NCBI GenBank assembly: GCA_038065455.1
Contig: JBBTQX010000003.1
Coordinates: 24,253 to 88,252, forward strand
DNA: 64,000 nt
Source of the DNA: Patescibacteria group bacterium
GTDB taxonomy: Bacteria > Patescibacteriota > Minisyncoccia > UBA6257 > GWB1-50-10
Reading direction: 5' to 3'
The notes below the pieces were generated by a model. It searched no databases and was not told the origin of the DNA. It worked only from the letters and a program-made list of their open reading frames with translations. The translations under genes were made by a program, and so were the position numbers. Shown here in pieces: positions 6,639 through 62,162 of the stretch (its first letter is position 1; each line of letters opens with the position of its first letter).

Positions 6639-8264
6639 TTATTTGAAATGACGATAGAACTCCTTTTTGGCCAATTCATACCGGTTGCCCCAGCCTTTCA
6701 TCTTTTGAAGCTTTTCCTCCAAATCAAGCATAATCTTCGCCGAAATAAGGATGGATTCGATGGAATCGCCTTCTTCGTTCCGGGCAATCTTCGCGCCGAT
6801 TGTCCGGTACATGTCCCGATAGCTCTGGGTTTTGAATATCCTCTTTTTCCTGATTATCCGGTGGTTGTCTTCGGATTGGTACTTGATGGCGTCGGTTATC
6901 CGAATGTTTTTTCCGTGTACCTTCAACTCCACGATATCCCGCGGACCGACCCTTGATGTGCCTTTTTCGCTGAAAGTCGTCGTGAAAGACGCGCCATTTT
7001 CCAATTCTATCCAGACCTCAACAGCGTGGTCGTGGAGAAGTTTGATATCAAAATCTTTCGGCTTGCTGAAATTATTCAGATGAAGGAAGTGATCGATTTG
7101 GTGGCAGCCGTTCGCGAAAAAAGTACTCCGCGAAACCGGCCAGTTGTACCAGAAAAATTCCGGCTGGATGAGCTCGTAAACGATGGAGTGATAGGAAATC
7201 GGATCGCCGCACTTCACGCCCAAATCCTTGAGGGCGAATTTGTTGAATATTCCGTAGCGCTTATGGAAGCCGATGAAAACTTTCCGGCCCGCCTGACGCA
7301 GGGCTTTTTCCAATTCGGCCAGTTCCTCATAGTCGTTTACGACCGGCTTTTCCACCACGGCGTAGGCGCCCCGCTTCAAGGCGTGGAGAGTGATGGGAAC
7401 GTGGGTGTGGTTGTAGCTCGCAACGAAATACACGTCGCCTTTTTCATCCGTTTCGGGAAAAGGCGCGGAGCTCCATTTTTCCACTCGCCGCTCGATAGAA
7501 ATCTGCGTCGGGTCTATTTCATGGACCGTCCGGATATCCACGAACGGCTTCATATAAGGAAGAATATTTATTTTGGCGTAGTTGCCGAAGCCGAAAAGAA
7601 TCCCGGTCTTCGGAGAGTTCGCCTCTATTTTCGATATCTCATCTTTGATCTCTGATACCGGACTCGCATTCCGCGCATCGACATGTTCCGCTTTGGACCA
7701 GTCGGTATTTTTTATTTCTTCCCGAAATCCTTTTTCCAGCCTTCCGCGCATTTCTTCCGAAACTTTTTCTCCCGAATACACGCTCCAAGCTTTCATTTCG
7801 CTCCACCATTGGTTTTGCTTTCCGCTGTTCCGCAAAGGATAGTAAAGAATTTCATTGTCTTTTCCATCAAAGGCGGACCCGCCTTGGGCGGGGAAAATAA
7901 ACTCTTCGGACAAGACAATCCGTTCGGCGAGCGCCGGATGCCAAGGAGCCAAAAAACCGACGGTATCGCCCTCGTGGAAATTTCCGCCCTCCGGCTTCTC
8001 CAAGATTTTTCCGATGCCGCAGGCGATATACTTGTCGTTGCGCCGCTCTTCCCGAAGGCGCGACCAGGTTTTCGTGAACATTCCGACCGGCCCCACGACC
8101 GGGAAATAATTCAAAAGCAGGCGCAGGCTTTTGGGCCGCGTATGATAGACGTTTTCGAGTTTTTCGAGGTTTTTCCAGGCCAGAACGCGGACCCGATATC
8201 CGCTCTTATTCCGAAAATAGTCCAAAAAGCCGCCCCTCCATTTTTTGCCGGCAAGTATCCTCAT
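6639..8264 (-). CDS. Gfo/Idh/MocA-family oxidoreductase carrying an uncharacterised N-terminal domain of about 200 aa.
   Basis: The C-terminal two thirds carry the Gfo/Idh/MocA Rossmann and alpha/beta domain (GILFGFGNY...VEKPVV...FIGFHKRY). The N-terminal 200 aa has no recognisable family. Confidence 0.5.
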   Translation of the reverse strand: MRILAGKKWRGGFLDYFRNKSGYRVRVLAWKNLEKLENVYHTRPKSLRLLLNYFPVVGPVGMFTKTWSRLREERRNDKYIACGIGKILEKPEGGNFHEGDTVGFLAPWHPALAERIVLSEEFIFPAQGGSAFDGKDNEILYYPLRNSGKQNQWWSEMKAWSVYSGEKVSEEMRGRLEKGFREEIKNTDWSKAEHVDARNASPVSEIKDEISKIEANSPKTGILFGFGNYAKINILPYMKPFVDIRTVHEIDPTQISIERRVEKWSSAPFPETDEKGDVYFVASYNHTHVPITLHALKRGAYAVVEKPVVNDYEELAELEKALRQAGRKVFIGFHKRYGIFNKFALKDLGVKCGDPISYHSIVYELIQPEFFWYNWPVSRSTFFANGCHQIDHFLHLNNFSKPKDFDIKLLHDHAVEVWIELENGASFTTTFSEKGTSRVGPRDIVELKVHGKNIRITDAIKYQSEDNHRIIRKKRIFKTQSYRDMYRTIGAKIARNEEGDSIESILISAKIMLDLEEKLQKMKGWGNRYELAKKEFYRHFK

Positions 8265-8382
8265 CCCGTTAGAGACAAGATGCGCTTTTTAAGCGCATCT
8301 GTTTGTTATGCGGACTTTTTGATTTTTCGAACCGAATGTAATTGTTTCTTTTCATATATCTATCTTGAACGTCTCTAACGGG
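8265..8382. repeat. Copy 1 of a 118-bp inverted-repeat element with 12-bp TIRs CCCGTTAGAGAC/GTCTCTAACGGG and an internal 8-bp hairpin (GATGCGCT...AGCGCATC). It abuts the ATG of the 6639..8264 gene.
   Basis: Read directly from the sequence. A second copy lies at 10391..10511 in the same orientation. The interior is AT-rich. Confidence 0.6.
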
Positions 8383-8429
8383 ACTCATATTCGATATAAT
8401 ATAACCAACTTTTATAGATATCAAATCGG

Positions 8430-9605
8430 CTAAAAGAAATTGTTAAGCGCTTCCGTTATTTTTTCCGCGGCGAAGCCGTCGCCGAAGGCGCCGTGTTTTT
8501 TGGCCATGGACGCGTAATGCGCCGGCTCGTCCAATAGCCAGAAAGTTTCACGGATAATGGCGCTTTTTTCGGCGCCGACAAGCATGGCGTTTCCGGCCGC
8601 GACGGCCTCGGGCCGCTCCGTCGTTTTGCGGAGCACCAGAATCGGCTTACCCATCAAAGAAACTTCCTCCTGAATGCCGCCCGAGTCCGATAGGATAATA
8701 TGTGCCTTGCCCATTAAAAAGAGAAATGGTTTGTAATCCAGCGGTTCGGTAAGCAGAATACCCGGCGCGCCGCGGAGCATCTTGAAAACCGTTTCCCGGA
8801 CATTCGGATTGGGATGCACCGGATAAACAAACAGGATATCCGGCCTCTTTTTTGAAATTTCAATAAGCGCTTCACAAATGTTTTTAAGCCCCTCCTCGAA
8901 ATTCTCCCGCCGATGGGCGGTGACGAGGATTATTTTCTTTTCCCCGGAAAATTCCATTCCGTATTTTTCGTTGAAATAATTTTCCCACTTCGCGCCGAAA
9001 TCTTTTCCGGCGGAAACGAGGCGCACGGCGTCCAGCGCCGTATTTCCCGTGACGAATATCCAGCTCTCCGGAATGTTTTCTTTCAGAAGATTTTTCTTGG
9101 CATCTTCGGTCGAAGCGAAATGAATATCGACCAAAGGCGCGATAAGCCGGCGATGCGCTTCTTCGGGAAAAGGATCGGACTTATTCCAAGTGCGCAGGCC
9201 AGCCTCAACATGAGCGATTCTGATTTTGAGATAGAACCCTATAAGCGCGGCGAGAAAAGCGGTAAAGGTATCACCCTGAACCGCGAGAAGATCGGGCTTT
9301 TCTTTTTTTATTATCCTCACGAAAGACAAAAGCCCCCAGGCGCTTTTTACCCCGCTCCAGCCTTTCCTAAAAATCCCCGCTCCGAAAAATTCCCGGTCAT
9401 TCAGGGATATTTTTAAATCAAAATCCGGCTTCAAACCGAAGGCAGAGAGCGCCTGGTCCAGCATCGCGCCATGCTGGCGGAAGACACAAGCGAGTACCCT
9501 GAATTTTCCGGAAGCTCGGAGCGAAAGGATGATCGGCGCAAGTTTGATTGCTTCGGGTCGGGTGCCGAAAACCACGAGAACCGTTTTTAATTTCGACCCT
9601 GTCAT
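8430..9605 (-). CDS. wecB: UDP-N-acetylglucosamine 2-epimerase, non-hydrolysing.
   Basis: VLVVFGTRPEAIKLAPI N-terminus. Conserved His/Glu epimerase_2 family motifs. 391 aa. Confidence 0.8.
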   Translation of the reverse strand: MTGSKLKTVLVVFGTRPEAIKLAPIILSLRASGKFRVLACVFRQHGAMLDQALSAFGLKPDFDLKISLNDREFFGAGIFRKGWSGVKSAWGLLSFVRIIKKEKPDLLAVQGDTFTAFLAALIGFYLKIRIAHVEAGLRTWNKSDPFPEEAHRRLIAPLVDIHFASTEDAKKNLLKENIPESWIFVTGNTALDAVRLVSAGKDFGAKWENYFNEKYGMEFSGEKKIILVTAHRRENFEEGLKNICEALIEISKKRPDILFVYPVHPNPNVRETVFKMLRGAPGILLTEPLDYKPFLFLMGKAHIILSDSGGIQEEVSLMGKPILVLRKTTERPEAVAAGNAMLVGAEKSAIIRETFWLLDEPAHYASMAKKHGAFGDGFAAEKITEALNNFF

Positions 9606-10390
9606 TTTCCTTTCAGTCTTGCCTTAAAAATCTTTATATCCACCAAAAATCTGTACCAAAATCCCTGGAGAGAGTGGAAAATCAGCCCTTCTTTTCCGTC
9701 CAAAAAGCCGAGCCGGATGAAAAAACGGTAGAAAAAATAAAGGCACGGCCGTAAAAATGGCGGCAAGCGGTAATAAAAAGAGCGTTTCGGATCATTCGCG
9801 GCTCCGCCGTTCAGGATATCCTTCACTTCCCTGTCCGAATATTTTTTGTGGCGCTCTATCCATTCTTTCAATCCTTTCCGGTTATCGTCCACAAAATCGT
9901 TTTTCAGGCGGCCGGACTCGCCTTCGAGCAATATCATATGCTCATCCATCTCTTTGTCTTCGGAACGGCCCATACCTTTCCGCCACAGCCTTAAAAACCA
10001 AATCGGATAATAGCCGCCGTGTTTTATCCAGCGTCCCATAAAATAAACGCGGCGCTTCATATAATATCCGTTGACTGCGGACCCGGAACCAATGACATTT
10101 TTTATTTCCTCCGCGAGTTCGGGAGTGAGATACTCATCGGCATCCAACTTCAAAATCCATTCGCCTTTTATTTCCAAATAATCCAGCGCCCAATTGAACT
10201 GTTCCGCCTGATTTTTGAAAGAATGGGTAAATGTTTCGGCGCCGAGTTTTTTTGCCAATTCAACCGTTCCATCCGTACTGCCAGAATCAACTACGATTAT
10301 CTGGGACGCGAGACTGCCGACGCTTTTAAGGCATCTTTCAAGATGTACGGCTTCGTCTTTGGTAAGAACTATAAGAGTAAGGTTATTCAT
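9602..10390 (-). CDS. Family 2 glycosyltransferase.
   Basis: LIVLTKDEAVHLERCL...VVDSGSTDGT GT2 signature. ATGA overlap with wecB. Confidence 0.7.
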   Translation of the reverse strand: MNNLTLIVLTKDEAVHLERCLKSVGSLASQIIVVDSGSTDGTVELAKKLGAETFTHSFKNQAEQFNWALDYLEIKGEWILKLDADEYLTPELAEEIKNVIGSGSAVNGYYMKRRVYFMGRWIKHGGYYPIWFLRLWRKGMGRSEDKEMDEHMILLEGESGRLKNDFVDDNRKGLKEWIERHKKYSDREVKDILNGGAANDPKRSFYYRLPPFLRPCLYFFYRFFIRLGFLDGKEGLIFHSLQGFWYRFLVDIKIFKARLKGK

Positions 10391-10511
10391 CCCGTTAGAG
10401 ACAGGATGCGCTCAAAAAGCGCATCCGTGATAGATTAGTTAACTCAACTTTATTGGATTTCATTGATTGTTTGATGATTATATTTTTCATAAGGTTTATG
10501 TCTCTAACGGG
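10391..10511. repeat. Copy 2 of the inverted-repeat element (121 bp). It has the same 12-bp TIRs. The hairpin GGATGCGCT...AGCGCATCC carries compensatory changes. It abuts the ATG of the 9602..10390 gene.
   Basis: Read directly from the sequence. Ends are homologous to copy 1 and the interior has diverged. Confidence 0.6.
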
Positions 10512-10512
10512 A

Positions 10513-11694
10513 TCAATTTTTCAGTATTTTATTATATTCGGCGAGCATCGCCTCCGCCACCTTATCCATTGAAAATTCTTTTTGAATCATTTCTCTGCCT
10601 TTTGCCTTAAATTGTTTTTTTAGATCTGGGTTTTTTAAAACCTTTAATATCGCTTCCGCAAACTTTTTCTCGTCTTTTTCAATAACCATGCCGGCCCCGT
10701 ATTTTTCAACATAGGGGCTTATTCCGACTTCGGGTGTAATCACAACCGCTGTTCCATATGCTCCTTCCATGGCAGCCATGCCGAAATTTTCCGAATAGGA
10801 CGGCAAAACAAAAACTGAAGAATCGCCGAAAGCAGCTGTTTTTTCGCCATCCGCAAGCATCCCTGTAAATACGACGTCTTTTCCATTTTTCAAATCATTC
10901 TTCGCTATAAAACCCCGAATTTGTTTCTCATAATTGTCTTCATCGCCGCCCGCTATGACCAGGATTGCTTTCGGCTCCTCCGCCAAGACCCGCTTGAATG
11001 CCGGAATCAAGGTATCAAAACCCTTCTTCCAATTCAAACGGCCGAGAGAGAGAATAATCTTTCTGTCGGGCGATATCCCGAATTTCTCCCTGGAAAATTT
11101 CGGAGCGGATTTTCCGCCAAATTCATCCAACTCAATTCCGTTTGGAATTATGAATGAACTTTTGAGCGGCAAGCCGGCCGCCAAGTACTCTTTCTTTTCG
11201 GCCTCGGCTGTAAAGTGGATTGCGGCTGCGCCGGCCAAATTTTTCTTCTCCACCAAATTCAGGTAAAGCCATTTTTTAAAATTGCTTTTTCTGGCCAGCG
11301 GCTCTTTCATTAAGCTTCCCCGGGGAGAAATAATATACGGCTTTTTGGATTTATTCGCATAACAGGCGCCCAAAGCGGAAGCCGCAAGAAAAACCGAAGT
11401 TATATGCACCATATCAAACTCTTTGATATTTTCTTCCAGAGCTTTGCGCAATGCGCGCGAATAAATCCAAAATCGTGGAAACGAAACGGGAAAATAAAAA
11501 ACTTTTACTCCGTCTACCGGTATCTCCCGCCCCAACGGAACGTCCAGTGTTTCGCGCCCATTTATATTCGTGGTGTAGACCGTCACATCCGCTCCTTTTT
11601 TCACAAGCCATTTATTCAAAGAATGGACGCTCTGAATCGGCCCGCCGTAGCCGTATGCGGGCAGATAGCTGGGAACGATATGGAGAATTTTCAT
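10513..11694 (-). CDS. Family 4 glycosyltransferase.
   Basis: MKILHIVPSYLPAYGYGGP N-terminus. C-terminal GT-B nucleotide-sugar binding region. Confidence 0.7.
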   Translation of the reverse strand: MKILHIVPSYLPAYGYGGPIQSVHSLNKWLVKKGADVTVYTTNINGRETLDVPLGREIPVDGVKVFYFPVSFPRFWIYSRALRKALEENIKEFDMVHITSVFLAASALGACYANKSKKPYIISPRGSLMKEPLARKSNFKKWLYLNLVEKKNLAGAAAIHFTAEAEKKEYLAAGLPLKSSFIIPNGIELDEFGGKSAPKFSREKFGISPDRKIILSLGRLNWKKGFDTLIPAFKRVLAEEPKAILVIAGGDEDNYEKQIRGFIAKNDLKNGKDVVFTGMLADGEKTAAFGDSSVFVLPSYSENFGMAAMEGAYGTAVVITPEVGISPYVEKYGAGMVIEKDEKKFAEAILKVLKNPDLKKQFKAKGREMIQKEFSMDKVAEAMLAEYNKILKN

Positions 11695-49938: not shown

Positions 49939-50958
49939 CTACTCGTTCTTGATGCAGAAGTAATTCCACGCCATCGTGAGAGTCGTTGTGCCGTGAATTA
50001 CTCCGAAGTTCGTCGCGGTTGAAGTGGTATAAGTGCTTGTTGCCATCAATCCGGAATTGGCGTCAGCGGCGGAAATGAGACATACCGGCGCGGCGGTATA
50101 TGTCGCGGCAAACGTTACGGTCGACGAGACATGGCCGCTGTCTACGCTTGTGAAGGAACCGGCGGTATCCGTGGAAGCCGCGCTAACCGTTGCTGTCCCA
50201 CCACCTGCCGTCGGAGCGGTACCATTCGAAACAAGTTGCCCGTTAAAGGCGATTCTCGCCGTGCCCGCTTTAAGCACGAGCGACGAAGTTCCGTTCGTCG
50301 TTCCAATCGTGATGAGGTTAGGAACCCCGCCTGTTCCGATATTCACCAATTTGCCGTTCGTCGCGCCCGTCGCGATATTCACGGTCGTCTGGCCGGTACC
50401 AGTGCCGAAGTTTAGGGTATTCACACCCGAACTTTGACCGACAGTAAGTGCGCCCGTCTGGGCTTCACCGCCGATTGTAAACGTACCGGTCGTGGTCGAG
50501 GTGCCGATGGAGTAGGTAGCAGCCCCGGCGCCGCCAATCACAAAATTTCCCGTCCCGACATAAAAATTCAAGGACGATGTGCCGTTCGTCGTTCCAATTG
50601 TGATGAGATTGGGAACTGCGCCGGTTCCGATATTCACCAACTTGCCATTCGTCGCGCCCGTCGCGATATTCACAGTCGTCTGGCCGGTGCCGGTGCCGAT
50701 ACCCACCGTGTTCACGCCGGTACTCTGACCTACCGTAAGCAGGCCTGTTTGGGCCGCACCGCCGATCAGGATGACCCCGCTCGTCGTTGAGGTGCCGATG
50801 GAGAAAGTCGAGGTAGCTACTCCGTCTATGGAAATGTCGCCGCCCGTCGTCAACACTCCCAATCCCAATGTCAAAGCGGCTTGCACGGAAATAATTCCCA
50901 AGAGCAATCCGCCCAAGACAACTCCGCTCAAAATCGAATATTTTTTGATTGTTTTCAT
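49939..50958 (-). CDS. Secreted Gly/Thr-rich protein with an internal duplication of about 110 aa.
   Basis: Signal peptide present. Two near-identical blocks (...QTTVNIATGATNGKLVNIGTG.VPNLITIGTTNGTSSL...). Confidence 0.5.
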   Translation of the reverse strand: MKTIKKYSILSGVVLGGLLLGIISVQAALTLGLGVLTTGGDISIDGVATSTFSIGTSTTSGVILIGGAAQTGLLTVGQSTGVNTVGIGTGTGQTTVNIATGATNGKLVNIGTGAVPNLITIGTTNGTSSLNFYVGTGNFVIGGAGAATYSIGTSTTTGTFTIGGEAQTGALTVGQSSGVNTLNFGTGTGQTTVNIATGATNGKLVNIGTGGVPNLITIGTTNGTSSLVLKAGTARIAFNGQLVSNGTAPTAGGGTATVSAASTDTAGSFTSVDSGHVSSTVTFAATYTAAPVCLISAADANSGLMATSTYTTSTATNFGVIHGTTTLTMAWNYFCIKNE

Positions 50959-60800: not shown

Positions 60801-62162
60801 CTAACGGAGGATTTTGCCGATTCGTTTCAGGGCTTCTTTTATTTCGCCTGTTCCAAGCGTTTTTCCGAAGCTGAAGCGCAGACTTCCCCGCACTCTTTCC
60901 TGGGGCAAGCCGAGTGCTTGAAGCACGGGCGAAGGAACGTAGGAGCGGGCGGAGCAAGCCGAACCAGCCGAAACCGCAATGCCGGCCATATCCAATTTAA
61001 CGAGCAGATCGCCCGCAAATTCCGTCGGGAAGTAAATATTCAGAATGTGCGGCGCATCGCTTTTGCCGTTGATTTCGGCTTGCGGATAGATTTTTTTGAG
61101 GCCCCGCCAAAATTCATCCCTAAGTGACTTTACTTCTTTCGTATTTTTGCTCCGGTCCTTTACCGCCAGTTCAACCGCTTTTCCGAAACCGATTATCGCC
61201 GGAATATTTTCCGTGCCGGAACGCAAACCAAACTCCTGCCCGCCACCCGTCACAATTGGTTTCACCAATTGCAAATTCGAATTTCTAAATCCTAAATCCG
61301 AAACACGGTTTTGAGTTTGGAATTTTGAATTTTGATTTTGTTTCGAATTTCGTGCTTCGAATTTCGTGCTTCGCATGTAAAGCGCTCCGACTCCCTTCGG
61401 GCCGTAAATTTTTTGGCCGGAAAGCGTCATTAAATCCACGCCAAGATTATCAACATCACAGTCAAAATAATTCAGAGCTTGGGCGGCATCAACGTGAAAA
61501 AGTGGGTACTTTTTCACCAAATCCGAATTTCTAAATCCTAAATCCGAAACACTTTTTTGAATTTGGTTTTTTGAATTTGGAATTTGTCCCGACCTTGTCG
61601 AGGATACTCGATGAAATCGGTATTTAGGATTTCGTGCTTCGGGCTTAGAATTTCTGAAATTGCGGATAATCTTTGCGATTTCGGCAATGGGCTGAATGCT
61701 CCCGATCTCGTTATTCACGTGCATCACGGAAACCAGGGCAGTCCGCTCATCCAATGCCTTTTCCAATTTTTTCAAATCCACAATGCCATTCTTGTCCACC
61801 GGGACATAAACTACTTCTATTCCCTCTTTCTCCAATTCGCGCGCCGTATCCAAAATGGATTCGTGTTCTATACAACCGACAATTATCTTTGGTAAAAAAA
61901 CTTTTACCGTCCCCCGCAGGGCAAGGTTATTCGCCTCCGTCGCCGAGCCGGTGAAAATAATATTCCGGAAATCCGCGCCCACGGCCTTAGCAACTGCGCC
62001 CCTAGCCTTATCCATCGCGCCCATTGCCTCCTGGCCGAAAGAATGAAGCGAGCCCGGATTACCGAACTTCTCCGCAAAATAGGGCATCATTACCTTCAAA
62101 ACTGCCGGCTCCACCGGAGTCGAAGCGGCATAATCCAAATAGATTCGGGATGGTTTGTTCAT
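60801..62162 (-). CDS. Cysteine desulfurase (class V aminotransferase, IscS/NifS-like) carrying two in-frame low-complexity insertions.
   Basis: YLDYAASTPV...SGQKIYGPKGVGALY...GGGQEFGLRSGTENIP conserved blocks. Insertions of about 45 and about 30 aa each contain VSDLGFRNS. Confidence 0.7.
   Translation of the reverse strand: MNKPSRIYLDYAASTPVEPAVLKVMMPYFAEKFGNPGSLHSFGQEAMGAMDKARGAVAKAVGADFRNIIFTGSATEANNLALRGTVKVFLPKIIVGCIEHESILDTARELEKEGIEVVYVPVDKNGIVDLKKLEKALDERTALVSVMHVNNEIGSIQPIAEIAKIIRNFRNSKPEARNPKYRFHRVSSTRSGQIPNSKNQIQKSVSDLGFRNSDLVKKYPLFHVDAAQALNYFDCDVDNLGVDLMTLSGQKIYGPKGVGALYMRSTKFEARNSKQNQNSKFQTQNRVSDLGFRNSNLQLVKPIVTGGGQEFGLRSGTENIPAIIGFGKAVELAVKDRSKNTKEVKSLRDEFWRGLKKIYPQAEINGKSDAPHILNIYFPTEFAGDLLVKLDMAGIAVSAGSACSARSYVPSPVLQALGLPQERVRGSLRFSFGKTLGTGEIKEALKRIGKILR
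61264..61376. repeat. Palindromic repeat element copy A, inserted in frame in the cysteine desulfurase gene.
   Basis: Shares CACCAA..GAATTTCTAAATCCTAAATCCGAAACAC...TTTCGTGCTTCG with copy B. Contains the AAATTCGAATTT palindrome. Confidence 0.5.
61514..61640. repeat. Palindromic repeat element copy B, inserted in frame in the same gene.
   Basis: Internal inverted repeat CTAAATCCTAAATCCGAAA ... TATTTAGGATTTCG. Homologous to copy A. Confidence 0.5.

Follow-up and report, generated by a model that had tools for sequence, protein, structure and literature searches.

Two start-codon insertions in a Patescibacteria glycan operon are probable miniature derivatives of a small element with a GIY-YIG nuclease as its only gene

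Introduction

Several described systems bear comparison with a repeat of about 120 bp that stands directly before two genes in a 64,000-nucleotide stretch of DNA from a Patescibacteria group bacterium (GenBank assembly GCA_038065455.1, contig JBBTQX010000003.1, positions 24,253 to 88,252 of the forward strand; this whole stretch is called the window below). In the Correia elements of Neisseria (Correia repeat enclosed elements, CREE) the duplicated target is TA and the inverted repeats are 26 bp long, and we know of no autonomous parent for them. Elements of the IS200/IS605 group use an HUH (Y1) transposase, carry subterminal hairpins instead of terminal inverted repeats (TIRs), and leave their target unduplicated. 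For the Rickettsia palindromic elements (RPEs), neither a nuclease parent nor a start-codon placement is known to us. The proteins of free-standing GIY-YIG homing genes, such as Seg of phage T4 and I-TevI, have a separate DNA-binding domain and home to one cognate site; to our knowledge these genes have no TIRs, target duplication, or miniature derivatives. Stand-alone GIY-YIG proteins of the UPF0213/YhbQ type are related to the structure-specific nuclease SLX1, and we know of no report of UPF0213 members that lie inside inverted repeats or are mobile.

An earlier note on the window, made from its sequence, described two copies of an element with TIRs and an internal hairpin, and offered two explanations: a mobile element resembling MITEs (miniature inverted-repeat transposable elements) that donates promoters or start contexts, or a cis-regulatory RNA structure controlling the glycosyltransferase and oxidoreductase genes downstream. 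It missed the direct repeats that flank the two copies (TGAG at copy 1, TGA at copy 2) and the parent element, in which a nuclease gene lies between the same repeats. Here we argue, with a probability of roughly 0.8, that both window copies arose by internal deletion from a small selfish element of the Candidate Phyla Radiation (CPR)/Patescibacteria with a sole GIY-YIG gene, and are its non-autonomous, MITE-like derivatives. No account of GIY-YIG genes inside inverted repeats, of such start-codon insertion, or of the repeat sequence was found in the full-text collection searched, though most subscription journals lie outside its coverage; the element is apparently undescribed, and a prior description is possible. 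A GIY-YIG protein has been listed among genes transferred from Patescibacteria (PMC12455944).

The element in the window and in other genomes

The sequence CCCGTTAGAGAC was found at 8265-8276 and 10391-10402 and its reverse complement GTCTCTAACGGG at 8371-8382 and 10500-10511 (plus strand). All four arms are exact, as the earlier note had it for its perfect 12-bp TIRs, and they are the sole exact matches within the window; no further exact or one-mismatch TIR pair was detected there, leaving a window total of two copies. The repeat could be refined to 13 bp, the outermost pair being T...A, with the A serving also as the A of the host ATG.

A first scan covering one genome per species used exact 11-nt arms in the pattern CCGTTAGAGAC-N85-115-GTCTCTAACGG and located the element at at least 118 loci in other genomes, nearly all of them metagenome-assembled genomes (MAGs) of CPR/Patescibacteria of many classes. 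This number disposes of the alternative that the window holds the only two copies and that they arose by a local duplication spanning the flanking genes. The host groups among the listed loci were Saccharibacteria, Parcubacteria groups, and Levybacteria, with a few Omnitrophota or Elusimicrobiota bins, and the viral contigs searched held no copy. Other MAGs carry 2-3 copies per 8 kb; the window carries 2 in 64 kb.

Searching genomes for spaced TIR pairs, as the earlier note had advised, showed that copies elsewhere are tightly bound to gene starts and bear compensatory changes, so they are not a plain scatter of repeats. Among the 124 copies listed from the scan, 100 lie directly before an ATG (91) or GTG (9) followed by a long open reading frame (ORF), with no ORF on the opposite side. 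The internal hairpin is gene-proximal in 84 of the 94 gene-associated listed copies; 1 has it on the gene-distal side, and in 9 none is seen. The genes that follow are of every kind: 91 downstream proteins match 131 Pfam families, and the genes include rplB (L2), rplI (L9), RNase III, aminoacyl-tRNA synthetases, TGT, and secretion ATPases. Upstream, the closest neighbour is usually a same-strand gene whose end falls 0-12 nt short of the element's left flank or left ATG, indicating that the element sits within tight operon junctions. Rfam gave no match, either for the window at gathering thresholds or, at E<=1, for the four elements searched.

Target duplication and empty sites

Bases outside the searched 11-mers were free of the search constraint, and the pairing of these outer bases indicates that the repeat is really 13 bp long. 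The 12th pair is C-G in 121 of the 124 listed copies, and the 13th is T-A in 98 and C-G in 22, with 4 exceptions. The 13th right-hand base is also the first base of the host start codon, such that T-A copies give ATG and C-G copies give GTG, the latter even where the left flank still reads ATG.

Outside the 13-bp TIRs we found a direct repeat that was exact over 4 nt in 78 and over 3 nt in 12 of the 124 listed copies (partner shuffles: mean 32, maximum 43); taken together, a 3-4-nt duplication flanks 90 copies versus a shuffle mean of 39. The most frequent 4-nt duplicates were TGAA (52), TGGA (10), and TGAG (5). The target is a tetranucleotide of the type T(G/A)A(A/G), of which 3-4 nt are duplicated. 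In the T-A class, which includes both window copies, a gene start almost always supplies this target as TGAA, TGGA, or TGAG. The base preceding the left repeat is A in 62 of the 78 copies with a 4-nt duplicate, which makes the original site a start codon, ATGAA. Tandem copies (loci L012, L036, and L046) share a 6-nt junction, as expected if the rebuilt site had been struck again.

A syntenic relative without the element was found at locus L141, on a contig from the Hainich H51 well; the window matches contigs from H41, a neighbouring well in the same aquifer. The host protein there (P0121) is 92% identical to the 541-aa protein of the window, and the order of genes is the same (GT4-GT2-epimerase-oxidoreductase, GT denoting glycosyltransferase families), with the element absent from both sites. 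At the points that correspond to the window's insertions the relative reads GAAAAATGAAACCC and GGCTTATGAGGATACTTGCCGG, with a single copy of the target in each. Its GT4 and GT2 genes overlap as GAAAA-ATGA-AACCC, the GT4 stop TGA lying within the GT2 start ATGA, and the site of window copy 2 reads ...AAT-TGA-(element)-TGA-ATAAC. Its oxidoreductase begins ...GGCTT-ATGAGG-ATACTTGCCGG, and the site of window copy 1 reads ...AAT-A-TGAG-(element)-TGAG-GATACTTGCCGG. These empty syntenic sites indicate that both window copies are insertions, with duplications of 3 nt (copy 2) and 4 nt (copy 1). The left flank of copy 2 now reads TTGA, one substitution away from the relative, in a start codon that is no longer needed.

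A contig from the window's own locus (L139; Logan contig SRR32696712_159289, positions 1-809) appears, from its coordinates, to end at the position of copy 2. Its GT2 ORF was called at 268 aa instead of 262, six codons too long, which would fit a frame running in from the right repeat. If so, the element would disrupt assemblies and lead start-codon calling astray.

A parent element that encodes a GIY-YIG nuclease

A longer version of the element accounts for the interior of these short copies. Locus L096 (7046-7321) holds a 276-bp version with the compensating repeat variants GAGCC/GGCTC, and between its repeats is an ORF that matches the GIY-YIG domain PF01541 (E 2.8e-16; 60 bits versus a cut-off of 22.6). 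A further full-length copy was retrieved by tblastn (L118), and L119 and L126 likewise hold a PF01541 ORF between the same repeats. The full-length form is thus about 275 bp long, with 13-bp TIRs at its ends and one ORF, for a GIY-YIG nuclease of UPF0213 type and 86-95 aa. A protein search returned 470 relatives of 86-97 aa, almost all from CPR, which databases label "excinuclease ABC subunit C" or "GIY-YIG nuclease family protein"; the wider family comprises 1087 clusters at 50% identity (E<=1e-10). In an independent sample of 80 metagenome loci that were fetched by protein, both arms were present in 77, 270-304 bp apart.

The repeats themselves encode the ends of the protein. C-termini of the form ...KNRLKRFL(S/A)LTG correspond to TTC CTG TCT CTA ACG GGA followed by TGA, that is, to the 3' half of the hairpin and the right repeat, and the motif LxLTG is present in 107 of the best 120 of the 470 homologues. 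Long forms start M[NSID]PVR[DEA], and this optional N-terminus (MNPVRD) is made up of the left copy of the duplicated host start codon and the left repeat. Repeat covariation can even be seen in the protein, where PVRA pairs with FLALTG (GAGCC/GGCTC). The nuclease ORF, having no stop codon itself, closes on the TGA of the right duplicate, which overlaps the rebuilt host start (GGG-A/TG-A), or on TAA in many C-G class copies; the gene and its downstream neighbour overlap by 4 nt. L143-L222 include copies of the C-G class (e.g., L147, L158, L163, L204; L150, L168; L220). Full-length members of this class often have TAAA or TAAG as flanks, and there too the duplicate supplies the stop codon.

Across 25 sequences Y5, Y16, G18, R24, R26, H30, and E62 never vary, and the conservation of N76 is 90% or more; we take these positions to be those of the catalytic motif of the GIY-YIG fold (Y...Y-x-G, Arg, His, Glu, Asn). 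Among solved structures the nearest is PDB 1ZG2 (UPF0213 protein BH0048; E 6e-10).

Related genes with other ends were also observed. In L052 (2205-2402) a related GIY-YIG gene lies between different inverted repeats, CACTTGGAAAGGAT and ATCCTTTCCAAGTG, and is flanked by a 14-nt direct repeat, GAGGGGCGGTTAGC, which is apparently the 5' end of a tRNA gene; other nuclease subfamilies thus seem to have their own ends and targets. Distant members (P0259, P0273, P0279-P0281, P0284, P0293, and P0294) end in ...(K/R)(N/S/R)YLTG rather than ...RFLSLTG, a hint of sister subfamilies whose right ends, though related, differ.

Two covarying helices

Two helices are maintained in the full-length metagenome loci, and the miniatures retain both. 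The first, P1, is the 13-bp helix formed by the TIR arms: 6 pairs (40 cells of the arm alignments) have both partners changed, a number that 0 of 500 shuffles equalled, and 91% of cells are paired, against 32-49% in slid registers. The second, P2, is 12 bp long and lies inside the gene, where the codons for RKRF (offset 87-92) are complementary to those for LKRFL beside the right repeat. It is perfect (12/12) in 49 of 76 copies and 11/12 in 18, the best random match being about 7; its covarying changes are largely synonymous and some 170 nt apart, with 94% of cells paired, 53 double-change cells, and 0 of 500 shuffles equal, counts that carry a slight bias to pairing from the choice of the 5' arm as the best complement, though the same codons were always chosen. 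In the predicted fold of a full-length copy, P2 is stacked directly on P1. Anchored stem detection and fixed-register arm alignments were used for this analysis; RNAalifold on a MAFFT alignment of 3' ends recovered 3 pairs only, the variable stems being misaligned.

Origin of the miniatures

The short copies could be traced to the nuclease gene by their remnants. One 131-nt element (L059) is an in-frame internal deletion of the gene that joins YVYVIQSEKDEKWYTGFTNDLRKR to YLKNRLRRFLSLTG and a stop codon. Miniatures of what we call type a, which include both window copies, have the 5' arm of P2 at offset 83-94 (mode 88), compared with 87-92 in full-length copies, and the approximately 170 nt between the P2 arms has shrunk to a loop of 3-9 nt; the hairpin of window copy 1 is what remains of the parent gene's RKR(F) and KRF(L) codons. 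In type b miniatures the P2 arm has moved beside the left repeat (offset 16), and 65-79 nt are left as a loop. Anchored beside the right repeat, 67 of 94 miniatures have a hairpin of 5 bp or more, versus 14.5% of shuffles, and these hairpins represent 49 different stem sequences, suggesting that pairing is kept while sequence and coding capacity decay.

Miniatures with interiors 86-91% identical precede unrelated genes on one contig or in one MAG, which suggests that the element also spreads in its miniature form. A tiny copy (approximately 72 nt) is nested in-frame in the GIY-YIG genes of P0020, P0031, and P0052 and is read through as ..PVRGKSPLATADMPLANRTSNGM.., with the junctions ..FTVD/PVRGKS...TSNG/MDLRKR. 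Its left flank keeps GTGGAT and its right junction reads ATGGAT; the target is therefore TGRA and not a start codon as such, the A coming from the element. The element can thus insert into coding sequence and be tolerated there. Even shorter forms were noticed, including a bare hairpin with a 13-bp stem and 3-nt loop (CCCCGTTAGAGGC-CAT-GCCTCTAACGGGG; L111, 4423-4451) and a 47-bp version with compensating GAGGC/GCCTC ends (L066, 4712-4767).

The window copies are small, lack a nuclease ORF of their own, and have TIRs, a target duplication, insertion polymorphism, and a longer, putatively autonomous relative, all of them features of MITEs. Of the first explanation in the earlier note, the MITE-like mobile element that donates start contexts is borne out by the TIRs, the target duplication, the absence from a syntenic relative, the presence in many genomes, and the last base that completes the start codon; the donation of promoters is the part left unsupported.

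Anatomy and surroundings of the window copies

The coordinates of both copies are collected in Table 1. In gene sense each has the order left repeat, AT-rich interior, hairpin, T, right repeat, with the host ATG following directly, as had been described for both genes. The interiors, also as described, are AT-rich and diverge from each other. A hairpin of the form GATGCGCT-N5-AGCGCATC occurs at 8279-8299 and 10405-10425 (expected 0.00 in shuffled sequence). Its 8-bp stem is the same in both copies and the next outward pair is A-T in copy 1 versus G-C in copy 2, so the hairpin of the earlier note is real, with one compensatory pair in place of the several substitutions claimed; the two loops are approximately reverse complements of one another. 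Both copies fold as RNA into a TIR helix plus hairpin (z -6.5 and -7.8 versus shuffles), in agreement with the proposal that the TIRs could form a long-range helix. In copy 1 an ORF of 38 codons opens at the original left ATG, crosses the element, and closes at a TAA that precedes the host ATG by 4 nt.

Table 1. Positions of the two element copies, their parts, and their host genes in the window (arms and hairpins in gene sense).
Feature	Position	Strand	Description
Copy 1	8264..8383	minus	120-bp non-autonomous element, 13-bp TIR to 13-bp TIR; at 8264 its last base doubles as the A of the host ATG
Copy 1, gene-distal (left) TIR arm	8371..8383	minus	TCCCGTTAGAGAC
Copy 1, gene-proximal (right) TIR arm	8264..8276	minus	GTCTCTAACGGGA
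Copy 1, hairpin (helix P2)	8278..8300	minus	AGATGCGCUU-AAA-AAGCGCAUCU; 5' arm from offset 83 relative to the left end
Copy 1, left target duplicate	TGAG 8384-8387 and original A 8388	minus	original start codon ATGAG
Copy 1, right target duplicate TGAG	8260..8263	minus	with the element's terminal A gives the working start ATGAGG of gene 6639-8264
Copy 2	10390..10512	minus	123-bp non-autonomous element, 13-bp TIR to 13-bp TIR; the host ATG has its A at 10390
Copy 2, gene-distal (left) TIR arm	10500..10512	minus	
Copy 2, gene-proximal (right) TIR arm	10390..10402	minus	
Copy 2, hairpin (helix P2)	10404..10426	minus	GGAUGCGCUU-UUU-GAGCGCAUCC; 5' arm from offset 86 relative to the left end
Copy 2, left duplicate TGA	10513..10515	minus	stop codon of the upstream GT4 gene (10513-11694)
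Copy 2, right duplicate TGA	10387..10389	minus	with the element's terminal A gives the start ATGAAT of gene 9602-10390
Host gene 3' of copy 1	6639..8264	minus	Gfo/Idh/MocA-like, 541 aa
Host gene 3' of copy 2	9602..10390	minus	GT2 glycosyltransferase, 262 aa

The surrounding genes are all on the minus strand and form a glycan cluster with GT4, GT2, UDP-GlcNAc 2-epimerase, Gfo/Idh/MocA-like, GT4, FkbM, and DegT proteins. The TATAAT that had been pointed out in copy 2 is present (10482-10477, minus strand, 16 nt past GAGACA), and promoter-like sites in the region are no commoner than in shuffles (4 seen versus 3.1 expected). Another promoter-like site, TTGATA-17-TATTAT, lies at 8396-8424 (minus) and ends about 7 nt before the left ATG of copy 1, which suggests that the former leader of the oxidoreductase gene may have been very short or absent.

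Proposed mechanism and points that weigh against it

We propose that a GIY-YIG nuclease, supplied in trans by a full-length copy elsewhere, would cut DNA in such a way as to move both full-length and miniature copies. The enzyme would probably recognise the folded P1/P2 structure, as a hairpin or cruciform, and not a long sequence, because a single domain of 86 aa has no room for a long site and UPF0213 proteins are classed with SLX1. The target would be cut with a 3-4-nt stagger, and host functions would fill and join the ends. A full-length ORF would borrow the start codon and ribosome-binding site of the host and take its stop from the duplicated target, while the host ATG would be rebuilt by way of the ATGA overlap. 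Insertions at start codons and ATGA junctions may persist because both neighbouring genes stay intact, and full-length copies would also keep translational coupling. The window copies themselves are probably near-neutral passengers that part formerly overlapping or adjacent genes by about 120 nt.

Beyond the derivation of the window copies, it is conceivable, at somewhat less than even odds, that the element represents a new class of prokaryotic transposable element: a start-codon parasite whose sole protein is an approximately 86-aa GIY-YIG nuclease, with no enzyme of the DDE, HUH, serine, tyrosine, or Cas1 type, that is recognised by its P1/P2 fold and inserts at TGA(A). That the nuclease mobilises the element is what its association with the repeats leads us to infer.

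Several points weigh against these proposals. The nuclease is assigned its role for being the only gene between the repeats, and a lone 86-aa nuclease would have no obvious means of joining DNA ends. A tblastn search with the GIY-YIG protein found no full-length copy in the window, so a trans-acting source in this genome is presumed. Identical GIY-YIG proteins each occur at one locus only and thus give no sign that full-length copies have transposed very recently. Some C-G class copies have flanks of another kind, CTGG/CTGG or the inverted CTTG...CAAG, that fall outside the start-codon pattern. The left-ATG reading frame reaches the host start in 19 of 74 miniatures only, which bears on how genes behind decayed miniatures are translated. 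Two points concern sampling: the exact 11-nt arms and 85-115-nt spacer of the first scan bias the size range and TIR conservation of the 124 listed copies, and one of the two peptide seed patterns behind the 80 metagenome loci is itself encoded by the TIR.

Alternative explanations

The best of the alternatives accepts that the element is mobile and contests only the purpose of the helices. In this explanation, which we regard as possible though unlikely, P1 and P2 work mainly in messenger RNA and are kept for host tolerance, either looping out the insert so that the upstream ribosome-binding site or stop is brought next to the rebuilt AUG, or throttling translation of the nuclease. The strong predicted folds (z -6.5, -7.8, and -6.4) favour it, and so does the way in which the helices bring both start codons to the foot of a single stem. 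On the sense strand, stems of the hairpins that have a single mismatch also lean this way (G-T/T-G 7 versus A-C/C-A 2), although counts this small are weak and too few to separate RNA from DNA. The almost fixed orientation of the gene-associated copies also points this way, but it could be inherited from the parent ORF or reflect strand-specific insertion, and a single protein binding the two ends would equally lead one to expect compensatory change in the TIRs. The open 38-codon frame of copy 1 is a further point in favour, yet early stops interrupt the left-ATG frame in 55 of 74 miniatures, and a ribosome at the left ATG or stop would have to melt the 5' arm of P1. The idea of the upstream ORF as a general coupling device was dropped on the same count of early stops.

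An improbable alternative is that the full-length copies are free-standing homing-endonuclease genes and the miniatures their relics, spread by double-strand-break repair between alleles with occasional illegitimate recombination, the repeats being incidental. The GIY-YIG fold is a classic one for homing endonucleases, the group I intron endonuclease model TIGR01453 is matched weakly and below threshold, and identical proteins are found at one locus across many samples. The same junction structure at more than 90 unrelated genes, with a covarying 3-4-nt duplication, is hard to obtain in this manner, as are near-identical miniatures at different genes of one contig or MAG and the tandem and nested insertions. 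The protein, moreover, has no DNA-binding domain for a long homing site, and the TIRs and P2 are maintained by compensatory changes.

Still less credit can be given to an ordinary MITE of a classical DDE insertion-sequence family, for which the GIY-YIG ORF would be a passenger or coincidence and a DDE gene would lie between CCCGTTAGAG and CTCTAACGGG. TIRs that come with a short target-site duplication typify DDE transposons, but the GIY-YIG ORF is the only one between the repeats in L096, L118, L119, L126, and the 77 of 80 metagenome loci, and the repeats themselves encode the nuclease termini. One longer TIR-like pair was followed up (L064, about 2.9 kb between the arms); its arms were degenerate, lay in ordinary sequence, and enclosed no element.

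The second explanation of the earlier note, a cis-regulatory (riboswitch-like) RNA leader, or likewise an invertible promoter, for surface-glycan genes, is scarcely credible even though both copies lie within a glycan operon, copy 2 contains GAGACA-16-TATAAT, and short inverted repeats around promoters are typical of invertons, since the downstream genes belong to 131 Pfam families, Rfam gives no match, the interior is unconserved and consists of decayed GIY-YIG coding sequence, the relative at L141 has the same operon without either copy, orientation is essentially fixed, and promoter-like sites are not enriched. Ideas based on attC sites, invertons, and recombinase core sites (tandem copies form a 12-6-12 palindrome) were abandoned on the evidence of the nuclease ORF, the target duplication, and the fixed orientation.

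Other repeats in the window

Two further repeats were noted in the window. A class-V aminotransferase gene (cysteine desulfurase-like; 60801-62162, minus) contains a pair of related inserts, each about 100 nt long and in frame, 246 nt apart, at approximately 61260-61375 and 61510-61660; the peptides they encode are of low complexity, ..RNSKPEARNPKYRF..SDLGFRNSDL.. and ..KFEARNSKQNQNSKFQTQNRVSDLGFRNSNL.., the Pfam match is broken into two stretches by them, and they may be another in-frame repeat element. A 194-nt direct repeat (50282-50475 and 50573-50766; 82% identical, period 291 nt) lies in an ORF at 49939-50958 (minus, 339 aa) that has no Pfam hit, and looks like an internal protein repeat.

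Significance

If the GIY-YIG protein is the mobilising enzyme, it would add a new enzyme class to the few mechanisms of prokaryotic transposition, and the element, at about 275 bp, would be one of the smallest autonomous mobile elements. The logic of its insertion would let a selfish gene live in the tight, reduced operons of CPR bacteria without breaking them, by sharing a start codon on one side and a stop/start overlap on the other. The large family, routinely labelled "excinuclease ABC subunit C", matters for annotation, gene-start calling, and assembly of CPR genomes, and the function of UPF0213/YhbQ-type nucleases becomes directly testable. The two covarying helices, one of them maintained by synonymous changes 170 nt apart in coding sequence, offer a clean instance of selection for structure over the protein code.

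Comparison with known systems

Among described systems, integron attC sites resemble the element in being imperfect inverted repeats of similar size (57-141 bp) that lie between genes and fold as single strands, and GTTAGAG here recalls the attC core GTTRRRY. The arrangement is different: the element has 5'-GTTAGAG...CTCTAAC-3' and attC has 5'-RYYYAAC...GTTRRRY-3', the element lies 5' of genes and attC at the 3' end of a cassette, and no integrase is associated with the element. The RPEs of Rickettsia, being short, palindromic, and tolerated in reading frames, are the counterpart of the nested copy in P0020, P0031, and P0052. Elements of the IS200/IS605 group and their palindrome-associated derivatives (PATEs) share with it a very small size, DNA-hairpin signals in cis, a short specific target, a strong orientation bias, and non-autonomous derivatives that bear hairpins.

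The closest protein relatives, the stand-alone GIY-YIG proteins of UPF0213/YhbQ type (PDB 1ZG2, BH0048), have the same single-domain fold and motifs in about 90 aa; the CPR subfamily differs from other UPF0213 proteins in that its termini (MNPVRD..., ...FLSLTG) are encoded by the repeats. With the homing genes of the Seg and I-TevI kind the element has in common a selfish GIY-YIG gene lodged between host genes. As for the miniatures, the Correia elements of Neisseria are similar in their size (approximately 100-150 bp), TIRs, short target duplication, and many intergenic copies near gene starts; they too have no transposase of their own and are transcribed into messenger RNAs in which the repeats can pair. 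Unlike them, the element described here has a parent that encodes a GIY-YIG nuclease, and it is inserted at the start codon itself, with its last base joining the codon.

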